22,962 nt of DNA from a virus (Duplodnaviria; Heunggongvirae; Uroviricota; Caudoviricetes), in IMG/VR virus record IMGVR_UViG_2645727945_000010, one strand, 5' to 3'. Below, piece after piece: positions 20,932 to 21,647 of the stretch; the stretch's first letter is position 1; every line of letters begins with the position of its first letter. Position numbers and translations under genes: made by a program. The notes beneath the pieces were generated by a model, which was not told the origin of the DNA, did not search any database, and was given only the letters and a program-made list of their open reading frames with translations.

Positions 20932-21078
20932 TCACCCCACCAGTCCCGATAACGTCAGGACTCGCCAGGCGGTGGAAAAGAAAATGGCAACCAGCATGAC
21001 TAAAAATGAAATGCCGACAAGTACACAGAGGCTCTTCACCAGCGTTATGAGTTTATCTGATATCATTAGCCACCCCAT
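20932..21078 (-). CDS. Candidate 48-aa single-pass membrane peptide, translationally coupled to the Ant-like gene
   Basis: Hand-translated: [48 protein letters not shown]. Its ATG overlaps the upstream stop as TGATG (21080..21076), and its stop lies 7 nt before the Rz ATG. Below the ORF-track size cutoff. Confidence 0.35.
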
Positions 21079-21647
21079 CAATCCGCCTTTGTTATTTTCC
21101 CTTTGCCTGTATCAGCCAGGACAAAATCAATCAGCATATTCGCTTCATTTACCAGCGTACGGATTTTTGATACATGCGCGGCTTTAACCTGTTTCCACTC
21201 ATTCAGCCCGGTAGCAAACACACTGGCAATGTTTTTATCCCGTTTCATGTCAGCACAAGCCTGGTTGAGTTCTTCCATCACGCTCATTTTACGGGGATTA
21301 ACGACAAAACCCTTCGTCCAGTACTCGTAAAGAACATCGTCGCACTCTTCCTGATACCGGATGACCTTATCGCGGATTTCGGGTTTTACTTTGTTGGGAT
21401 TAATGGTTTGTAGCCAGCCGGCAAGTTTTCGAAGTGGCATGGACACCATATTGCGTTGTTTCCCATCCTCAGCAACCATAACGATTTCCGTTATAGTTGA
21501 CGCAAAACGCTGTCTTAACTTAGCCAACTGTGATTGCCAGGCCAGCCCCATCCCCGCAACGACAGGTTTCATGGGAACGTATGGTTCGCCATTATGGTTA
21601 ACTACATAAAGAGAGTTGCCGTGAAACGGCACGGCCATCATATTCAT
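21078..21647 (-). CDS. Antirepressor-like protein (Ant / P22 AR N-terminal domain-like) inserted in the lysis cassette
   Basis: 189-aa ORF with AAGGA RBS. N-terminus MNMMAVPFHGNSLYVVNHNGEPYVPMKPVVAGMGLAWQSQ matches the pattern of phage antirepressor N-terminal domains. Family assignment from memory. Confidence 0.7.
   Translation of the reverse strand: MNMMAVPFHGNSLYVVNHNGEPYVPMKPVVAGMGLAWQSQLAKLRQRFASTITEIVMVAEDGKQRNMVSMPLRKLAGWLQTINPNKVKPEIRDKVIRYQEECDDVLYEYWTKGFVVNPRKMSVMEELNQACADMKRDKNIASVFATGLNEWKQVKAAHVSKIRTLVNEANMLIDFVLADTGKGKITKAD

Follow-up and report, generated by a model that had tools for sequence, protein, structure and literature searches.

Genes of the R–Rz interval

The stretch considered here is a 22,962-nt Caudoviricetes virus record (IMG/VR record IMGVR_UViG_2645727945_000010), referred to at its full length as the window; positions are window coordinates unless a comparison locus (L number) is named. 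At its lysis end, between the genes for the endolysin R and the i-spanin Rz, are a gene for a 189-amino-acid (aa) protein resembling the phage antirepressor Ant and a small open reading frame (ORF) for a hydrophobic peptide of 44 or 48 aa. A preliminary description took these two for one insertion and suggested one functional module; the comparisons below point instead to two separable elements lying side by side. By reading of the sequence and the ORF list, every gene at the lysis end is on the minus strand, in the transcription order class II holin, YdfR/DUF1327, R, a 270-nt gap, the 189-aa ORF, the small ORF, and Rz/Rz1. The features from R to Rz are:

21918–22451, minus strand: endolysin R, a phage lysozyme (PF00959, E 5e-25; labeled R/lysozyme in BP-4795)
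21763–21917, minus strand: spacer from the R stop to the leader (from alignment with PhiR5_2 and sequence reading)
21648–21762, minus strand: structured leader of the ant-like gene (covariance model match 21645–21762)
21078–21647, minus strand: Ant-like protein, 189 aa (P22_AR_N and ORF11CD3 in Pfam)
20932–21078, minus strand: small membrane-peptide ORF, 48 aa from the ATG at 21078 or 44 aa from the ATG at 21066 (phrog_4906)
20457–20924, minus strand: Rz i-spanin (PF03245, E 5e-50)
20519–20704, minus strand: Rz1 o-spanin, embedded in Rz (PF06085, E 2e-21)

The TGA stop of the Ant-like gene (21080–21078) shares bases with the small-ORF ATG at 21078, giving TGATG. The small ORF ends in a stop codon at 20932–20934, and 7 nt (20925–20931) separate it from the Rz ATG at 20924; the Rz Shine-Dalgarno (AAGAGAG) sits within these 7 nt. 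The coordinates, overlap and gap had thus been read correctly in the preliminary description. Its placement of both genes, tightly packed, in the late/lysis operon also stands: a scan for the sigma-70 consensus only found no sigma-70-like promoter on the minus strand of 20300–22962. Over the same range, promoter and terminator sites are fewer, or no more, than in shuffled sequence, and terminator-like hairpins occur only upstream of the leader-Ant unit or inside its 5′ end.

Prior record in Shiga toxin phages

The arrangement R-ant-peptide-Rz is already on record in the genomes of Shiga toxin (Stx) phages, and is not a discovery in itself. The region 20400–22962 matches 472 phage records, 121 of which cover at least 80% of it, the best being BP-4795 and many Stx1a and Stx2a phages at 95% identity; positions 20900–21950 are 99.7% identical to the Stx1 phage of Morioka V526, PA4, Min27, and others. 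Stx lambdoid phages in general (BP-4795 ORF46–51; 933W/Sakai-type Stx1 and Stx2 phages) share the order S, YdfR, R, ant, 48-aa ORF, Rz/Rz1, with DNA identity of 95–100% to the window and no substantive difference; the genes there are named by homology only. The labels in BP-4795 are S, YdfR family, R, ant (ORF49), hypothetical protein (ORF50, 147 nt), and Rz.

The description of the small ORF as previously unannotated holds for some records only, such as Stx2-86, where it is left blank. It is ORF50 in BP-4795 and H3V23_gp66 in Stx2a_WGPS2, which follows the same annotation pattern, and it is labeled “hypothetical protein” by PGAP in E. coli chromosomes. A 2021 survey of Stx phages found Ant phams in 126 genomes and took them as lysis-lysogeny regulators by name only (PMC8136144). 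Literature searches turned up no functional work on either the lysis-cassette Ant-like gene or the peptide.

The Ant-like gene and the peptide are separable

A blastn search located the peptide gene in 1749 of 5426 complete E. coli genomes, a single genome having as many as 11 copies. Of the 1768 E. coli records that carry the gene, 983 show a best match of 60–80% identity that ends short of the ant 3′ end. Three such Ant-less loci (PhiR5_2, ST131 strain MB1159, and WP9-S17-ESBL-11) have the order holin, YdfR, lysozyme, a 60–70-aa protein, a 43-aa peptide, and Rz, the 60–70-aa protein having a C-terminal transmembrane (TM) anchor and belonging to phrog_1115 or phrog_6632. The covariance model of the leader (described below) has no match in the Ant-less loci or in the K-12 prophage Qin, which serves as a baseline: there, rrrQ overlaps rzpQ, with nothing between. 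Wherever the peptide gene was seen, it is directly upstream of Rz, with a gap of 7–12 nt to the Rz start.

The Ant-like protein has a different distribution, with 2581 homologues across Enterobacterales. In Salmonella a homologue lies between a GH108 endolysin and a 60-aa lipoprotein; one in Photorhabdus comes after Rz and precedes an unrelated gene; and in an APSE-like Hamiltonella prophage the lysozyme comes first, then the homologue, a pair of unrelated small genes, a KilA-N gene, and Rz.

Where both genes are present, their alleles and those of Rz occur in mosaic combinations. At L019, for example, the peptide is 100% identical, Ant 83% and Rz 79%, while at L091 the peptide is 77% and Ant 99.5% identical. 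Among the 112 loci that were retrieved with the peptide and have enough flanking sequence, the peptide ORF is intact in 111 and Ant is full length in 90.

The Ant-like gene and the peptide are thus two separable elements and not an obligate pair, since the peptide is found mostly without Ant, Ant homologues have unrelated downstream genes, and the alleles recombine independently. The peptide is the resident of this type of E. coli lysis cassette, and the Ant-like gene is the mobile part. Of the “two-gene insertion” of the preliminary description, what remains is the leader plus the Ant-like gene, which behaves as an inserted unit; the peptide keeps its place upstream of Rz in Ant-less relatives. 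The same observations leave the single functional module unsupported. As in morons, extra sequence lies between genes that are adjacent in relatives (rrrQ/rzpQ in Qin; the Ant-less loci), but the promoter and downstream terminator that a moron would have of its own were not found on the minus strand in the scan for the sigma-70 consensus.

Besides the 43-aa peptide, one to four small membrane proteins with C-terminal anchors are encoded, as a variable cluster, in the R–Rz interval of Ant-less E. coli prophages. Those of phrog_1115, phrog_6632 and phrog_4493 share the motif DDISRALAFAIKW (L226, 1790–2353; L227, 2148–2330; L003, 1648–1830).

The leader cassette and its interchangeable genes

The sequence immediately upstream of ant (21642–21783, ~137 nt) is 83–93% identical to stretches preceding unrelated genes in other phages:

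KilA-N gene: SE1Spa, ST104
HNH_3+AP2 gene: phages Dewey and ECP1
sb54: ST64B
“DNA binding protein” gene next to tail genes: a Klebsiella phage
“transcriptional regulator” gene: a P22-like phage

Pattern scans of IMG/VR recovered at least 224 instances of this leader, at least 52 of them distinct. Among 28 representative downstream proteins, ORF11CD3 was found in 12, Phage_pRha in 10, KilA-N in seven, P22_AR_N in five, and HNH_3 in four. The recognizable upstream genes, by reading, encode an endolysin, an Rz-type spanin, or a tail-region protein. Upstream of Ant-like homologues in other genera, an intrinsic terminator hairpin and then this leader make up a gap of ~170 nt, and a canonical hairpin with T-run precedes the leader at the Salmonella, Photorhabdus, Hamiltonella and P22 loci.

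In the corresponding spacer of the window, the 5′ part, ~95 nt past the R stop (21822–21917, minus strand), is common to the window and Ant-less PhiR5_2, after which the two diverge. The spacer has weak hairpins, GGCA..TGCC followed by TTTGTCATTT, and also TGCGC-ATCTCAC-GCGCA; the window hairpin falls outside the criteria of the terminator scan. The shared segment 21822–21917 also holds an imperfect hairpin, GCAGAAUAUUUUGCUG.

Another gene with such a leader is P22 rha (orf201), which likewise encodes a small DNA-binding-type protein next to lysis genes in the late operon, behind a terminator hairpin and a homologous leader (covariance model score 129 bits in the window, 53.8 bits at P22 rha). 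It differs from the window gene in having a Phage_pRha rather than a P22_AR_N N-terminal domain, and in following Rz rather than lying between R and Rz; the ORF11CD3 C-terminal domains common in the cassette family are a further likeness to the P22 rha setting.

Some Stx-phage-like loci carry two cassettes, R-[leader-Ant]-peptide-Rz-[leader-Rha], so that leaders flank the spanin genes. The second, Phage_pRha cassette is directly downstream of Rz (L064, 2272–2926; L090, 1447–2086), with leaders at 2272–2389 and 1447–1562, respectively. A 39-aa ORF within the leader (21679–21798) was considered as a possible gene and rejected: by reading, most differences from the SE1Spa and Dewey copies are non-synonymous, and the frame or the stop is lost.

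The Ant-like protein

In Pfam searches, residues 5–113 of the 189-aa protein match P22_AR_N (PF10547, E 1.4e-45), and ORF11CD3 is also matched (E 5.5e-6); in PHROG the protein falls in phrog_524, “anti-repressor Ant” (E 2e-112). For the N-terminal domain, then, the preliminary label “antirepressor-like” was well chosen. The C-terminal half of P22 Ant (P22_AR_C, KilAC/ANT) has no Pfam match at E ≤ 0.1, its place being taken by ORF11CD3. Nor is there a match to Phage_pRha (PF09669), which is carried by 10 of 28 other cassette proteins. The gene is under purifying selection, with a median ratio of non-synonymous to synonymous substitution rates (dN/dS) of 0.21. An AlphaFold2 model (predicted local distance difference test, pLDDT, 68) suggests a β-β-α-α-β-β-α N-terminal domain followed by long helices, with the ORF11CD3 region modeled as a long helical hairpin. 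A sequence search of solved structures returned chance-level matches only (E ≥ 0.017).

P22 Ant, from immI, is a 300-aa protein. It shares the P22_AR_N domain with the window protein, with 68% DNA similarity over ~190 nt, but its C-terminal half differs, and within immI it is under the control of Mnt, Arc and sar RNA; the window protein has 189 aa, an ORF11CD3 domain, a late-operon location and a different leader. Its domains and its relation to the P22 rha cassette make it most likely a DNA- or regulator-binding protein of the Rha/Ant class that is expressed late, and not a lysis protein. P22 rha itself is a late-operon gene that is harmful to lytic growth where integration host factor (IHF) is lacking, with a phenotype known for phi80 and P22 rha (PMC4936722), and by context it is the closest functional analogue.

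The name invites another reading, in which the protein is a true antirepressor, made late, that inactivates CI-type repressors of co-resident or superinfecting phages, the peptide being unrelated. P22_AR_N is indeed the N-terminal domain of P22 Ant and phrog_524 is named for it; trans-acting antirepressors that induce neighboring prophages are documented for Gifsy phages (PMC3121763); and O157 genomes have five to eight copies of this region. We nevertheless think it unlikely. The C-terminal half of P22 Ant is missing. The name comes from homology only, and the leader is shared with Rha, KilA-N and HNH genes, none of which is named as an antirepressor. The Phi24B ant that Fogg et al. knocked out is a different gene, its product resembling the C-terminal part of P22 Ant (PMC3064807). 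The window protein is not a demonstrated antirepressor.

The membrane peptide

The small ORF has a PHROG family of its own, phrog_4906 (E 5e-30), with no function assigned. The family is very narrow: clustering at 90% identity gives 53 groups, every one from E. coli, and at 50% identity 1.84 billion proteins yield 29 representatives, of which most start MSDK. Its consensus is MSDKLITLxKxLCV(I/L)VGISFxxMLVA(I/L)FxSxAWxxLxxxGL(V/L)G. A single strongly hydrophobic 19-residue window (residues 16–35, Kyte-Doolittle 2.82) predicts a single-pass membrane protein with very short tails, nearly all of it TM helix, in agreement with the single TM segment of the preliminary description.

That description had also made conservation and purifying selection the measure of whether the gene is real, and both are found. 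Besides being intact in nearly all the loci counted above, the ORF has dN/dS of 0.2–0.5 between allele groups (median 0.35; 13 distinct DNA alleles, 42-codon core), while the shifted frames give 0.80 and 1.29. The peptide gene is therefore real and under purifying selection.

Its start is probably not at the overlap. Most family representatives align from profile position 6, beginning MSDKL, and in PhiR5_2 this start lies behind a strong Shine-Dalgarno, AAGGGAGGA. In three loci (L006 and two others) a TAG stands between M1 and M5 with the frame open from M5, a natural indication that the upstream start can be dispensed with. Together these suggest that the product in the window is probably a 44-aa peptide translated from the internal ATG at 21066 (21066–20932). 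On the same evidence, the join to the Ant cassette would have produced the four-codon “MGWL” extension and the TGATG overlap as side effects. The two ATGs are within 12 nt of the Ant stop, and some translational coupling to Ant is possible.

The TAG is a change from TGG at the position matching 21070–21075, in the 49-aa “MEWWLMISDK” allele group. L006 (NZ_JPLE01000251.1, 328 nt) was deposited as Xanthomonas pisi DSM 18956 and is 93–95% identical to the ant 3′ end, peptide, and Rz start of E. coli phages. It was the sole match in a one-genome-per-species collection, and the contig is most likely contamination of that assembly.

The peptide was compared with the known classes of small lysis proteins. 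It lacks holin or antiholin features, having one TM segment, no charged C-terminal domain (a tail with at most one charge) and no holin match in Pfam or PHROG, and the cassette already holds a class II holin. It has no spanin features, neither a lipobox nor a periplasmic domain, and Rz/Rz1 are separate. No Pfam match to the releasin domain DUF2730 was found, and at 44–48 aa the peptide is short compared with the Mu gp25 releasin, which has 99 aa with an N-terminal TM domain, an acidic 73-aa cytoplasmic domain, and DUF2730 (PMC9239132). It fails the defining features of a disruptin as well. The lambda S107 antiholin, Mu gp25 and P2 LysA are likewise small inner-membrane proteins in lysis cassettes, with a SAR-type endolysin and late co-expression, but the peptide has no sequence relationship to them and is almost all TM helix, without a charged C-terminal domain.

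A lysis-related role for the peptide alone is nonetheless plausible. Every peptide locus examined has a cassette with class II holin and a lysozyme of the SAR (signal-arrest-release) type. In the window, the N-terminus of R (MNAKIKYGLSAAVLALIAAGAPAP) is a hydrophobic segment that looks like a SAR anchor, and Stx-phage endolysins have been assigned to this type (PMC8136144). The fixed position by Rz, the Rz Shine-Dalgarno at the peptide stop, and the class II holin/SAR-type lysozyme cassettes point to a role in the envelope at lysis as the likeliest; that the peptide would be accessory to SAR-endolysin release or spanin function is a possibility we put at slightly short of an even chance.

The main alternative to a lysis accessory would make the peptide an exclusion or conversion factor expressed from the prophage, of the moron type like HK97 gp15. 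Its small size and single membrane pass, its very wide spread in E. coli prophages, cryptic ones included, and its integrity where Ant has decayed would suit such a factor. But it has no promoter-like site of its own, is always 7–12 nt from the Rz start in a late operon, and has no match in PADLOC, so this seems to us quite improbable. A PADLOC search with the Ant-like protein, the peptide and YdfR gave no match at E ≤ 1, and an NCBIfam scan of the same three proteins no matches; the superinfection-exclusion and abortive-infection roles that the preliminary description had offered thus found no positive evidence, either there or in a promoter of their own.

Predicted structure of the leader RNA

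A fold for the leader was derived on an alignment of 52 distinct leaders. It is a long irregular hairpin with a basal helix, an apical junction with two hairpins (P2 and P5), and a pseudoknot (P1). In window coordinates, on the minus strand, its elements are:

21748–21754 with 21692–21698, minus strand: pseudoknot P1, 5′ tail CACAGAA with P5 loop UUCUGUG
21735–21747 with 21657–21670, minus strand: basal helix, CCUUUCAGGAUGA (anti-Shine-Dalgarno strand, also CCTTTCAGGATGA) with UCAUCACUAAAAGG (also TCATCACTAAAAGG)
21729–21733 with 21672–21676, minus strand: P3, CCUUG/CAAGG
21725–21728 with 21683–21686, minus strand: P3b, AGGA/UCCU
21706–21723, minus strand: P2 hairpin, ACCG/CGGU, at the apical junction
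within 21692–21705, minus strand: P5 hairpin, GCC/GGC, at the apical junction

The 3′ strand of the basal helix (21657–21670) takes in the ant Shine-Dalgarno. Standard pairs fill 95.7% of 1817 alignment cells; 12 pairs change on both sides, with 58 compensatory cells, and none of 500 column shuffles reached the values of the leader. When the 3′ partners are slid by one to three columns, pairing falls to 34–54% and the covariation score from 0.140 to 0.03–0.05. Two P1 positions are occupied by all four pair types (AU/UA/CG/GC, 35/10/6/1; CG/AU/UA/GC, 38/9/3/1), and divergent Hamiltonella-type leaders have, by reading, insertions matched on both strands of P3 and the basal helix. G-U pairs are present on the coding (minus) strand only. 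A covariance model of the nested part finds the window leader as a single copy at 129 bits (E 7e-29), against 16 bits on the opposite strand. A cmscan of 19000–22962 against Rfam 15, on both strands, gave no match at E ≤ 1, and the leader appears not to have been described before as a structured element.

The same model scores 53.8 bits (E 1e-10) upstream of P22 rha (L230, 3523–3645), a leader that the retrieval pattern had missed. Every helix is kept there, and P1 (CACCGA/UCGGUG) and P2 (CCAG/CUGG) show additional compensatory changes. This leader has already been met as an RNA: P22F, an 89-nt small noncoding RNA reported in 2026 from P22-infected Salmonella and vesicles, has its 3′ end 6 nt before the rha start, was validated by reverse transcription PCR, and was given as having “no known function” (PMC13397905). 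It covers the 3′ three-quarters of the P22 leader, and a homologous leader therefore accumulates as a discrete RNA. The annotated start of P22 rha (L230, 3576–4181; NC_002371.2) falls inside the structured leader; the ATG at L230 3646 fits the model better, and the RefSeq start is probably too far upstream.

Together with the missing sigma-70 match, this evidence makes it very improbable that the 115-nt stretch acts as a DNA element (a recombination “boundary,” a protein site such as for IHF, or a promoter) and not as RNA structure. Such an element could account for its position at a junction where different genes swap, for the reported regulation of rha by IHF (PMC4936722), and for the unremarkable folding energy of the sequence, but not for compensatory double changes at 12 pairs with up to four pair types, matched insertions in helices, G-U pairs confined to the coding strand, a strand-specific covariance model, and a homologous RNA in P22 infection. 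By eye, with no formal scan, the leader has no convincing match to the IHF consensus.

Another fold, GAACCUU/AAGGUUC plus CAGGA/UCCUG, was tried as the main structure and rejected: it pairs in 96% of cells, with no covariation beyond that of shuffles, and its invariant columns were fixed by the retrieval pattern. The GAACCUU/AAGGUUC pairing would free the Shine-Dalgarno, and an alternative “on” conformer of this kind is speculative.

Leaders that sequester the Shine-Dalgarno, such as RNA thermometers and riboswitch platforms, likewise pair it with an upstream pyrimidine tract; here the fold is kept by covariation. Compared with typical thermometers the present leader is larger, with five helices and a pseudoknot, and it has no Rfam family and no known ligand or trans-acting factor. 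Autoregulation by the encoded protein is unlikely, because the leader is common to unrelated downstream genes.

Flanking genes

The remaining genes of the lysis cassette in the window are:

22851 to past the window end, minus strand: class II holin
22502–22846, minus strand: YdfR/DUF1327 gene, 114 aa, between holin and endolysin

The YdfR/DUF1327 gene is a second non-canonical occupant of the lysis cassette, found also in K-12 Qin (ydfR) and in the Ant-less prophages. Downstream of Rz are a DUF3950/YnfO-like gene on the plus strand (~20065–20264), an HNH endonuclease gene (19657–20022, minus strand) and the small terminase subunit gene (18803–19366, minus strand). The HNH-terminase packaging order is the usual one for BP-4795-type phages.

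A probable mobile cassette beside a resident peptide

The reading we prefer, with a probability of roughly 0.7, is that the R–Rz interval holds two independent elements side by side: a mobile leader-regulator cassette and a resident lysis-cassette peptide. The cassette would consist of a weak terminator-like hairpin, a pseudoknotted leader of ~115 nt, and the Ant-like gene, and would have been placed just downstream of the endolysin. Similar leader cassettes, P22 rha among them, are found after an endolysin, after Rz, or among tail genes. The cassette is presumably transcribed within the Q-antiterminated late operon. As the basal helix would pair the ant Shine-Dalgarno with an upstream CCUUU tract, translation of the gene is probably throttled or gated. 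At its 3′ end the cassette abuts the peptide gene, which would give rise to the TGATG overlap and the four-codon N-terminal extension, and the 43–48-aa inner-membrane peptide would be made with Rz/Rz1 from the late transcript.

Several points weigh against this reading. The Ant-peptide-Rz spacing is tight; translation of the peptide could depend on Ant here, and there could be a secondary functional link. The single-sequence fold of the leader is thermodynamically ordinary (minimum free energy −33.1 kcal/mol, z = −0.55), so that the case for its structure rests on covariation. The pattern used to retrieve alignment A5 fixed GAACC, UUU, AUGA and GGUUCAU, and invariance there is partly imposed; the pattern left the covarying positions free, and the fold agrees with leaders reached via protein homology or the covariance model. 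The model of the Ant-like protein is only moderately confident (pLDDT 68), with no informative structural neighbor. Finally, the anatomy, separability, conservation and selection, and leader covariation are direct observations, and every biochemical function proposed for them is reached by inference.

A single translationally coupled Ant-peptide module for lysis timing, superinfection exclusion or abortive infection would fit the TGATG overlap, the 7-nt spacing to Rz and the occurrence of the pair in 90 of the 112 peptide-retrieved loci and in many Stx phages, but is very unlikely given that most E. coli genomes with the peptide have it beside Rz without Ant, that Ant-like homologues elsewhere lack the peptide and the alleles recombine independently, that the native MSDKL start lies downstream of the overlap, that neither protein has a PADLOC match, and that no promoter for expression in the lysogen was found.

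A bolder version of the two-element reading may be entertained tentatively, as something we would sooner doubt than assert: the leader would be an undescribed class of pseudoknotted cis-regulatory RNA that gates translation of Ant-like, Rha, KilA-N and HNH genes by occluding the Shine-Dalgarno, possibly as a two-state switch, these genes forming one family of exchangeable DNA-binding proteins placed beside lysis genes throughout Enterobacterales; and the 44-aa peptide would, independently, be an unrecognized fifth component of the pinholin/SAR-endolysin/spanin system, affecting lysis and hence Shiga toxin release.

Implications

A conserved membrane protein, probably of 44 aa, is encoded beside the spanin genes in about one-third of complete E. 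coli genomes, including all Stx-phage-like loci seen here. The lysis step frees Shiga toxin along with progeny, so an unrecognized lysis accessory would be of practical interest. The shared leader, if regulatory, would explain how rha, kilA-N-type and HNH genes, long a puzzle as potentially harmful “regulatory” genes, are restrained inside late operons; such a role, if true, would also give the P22F RNA a function.

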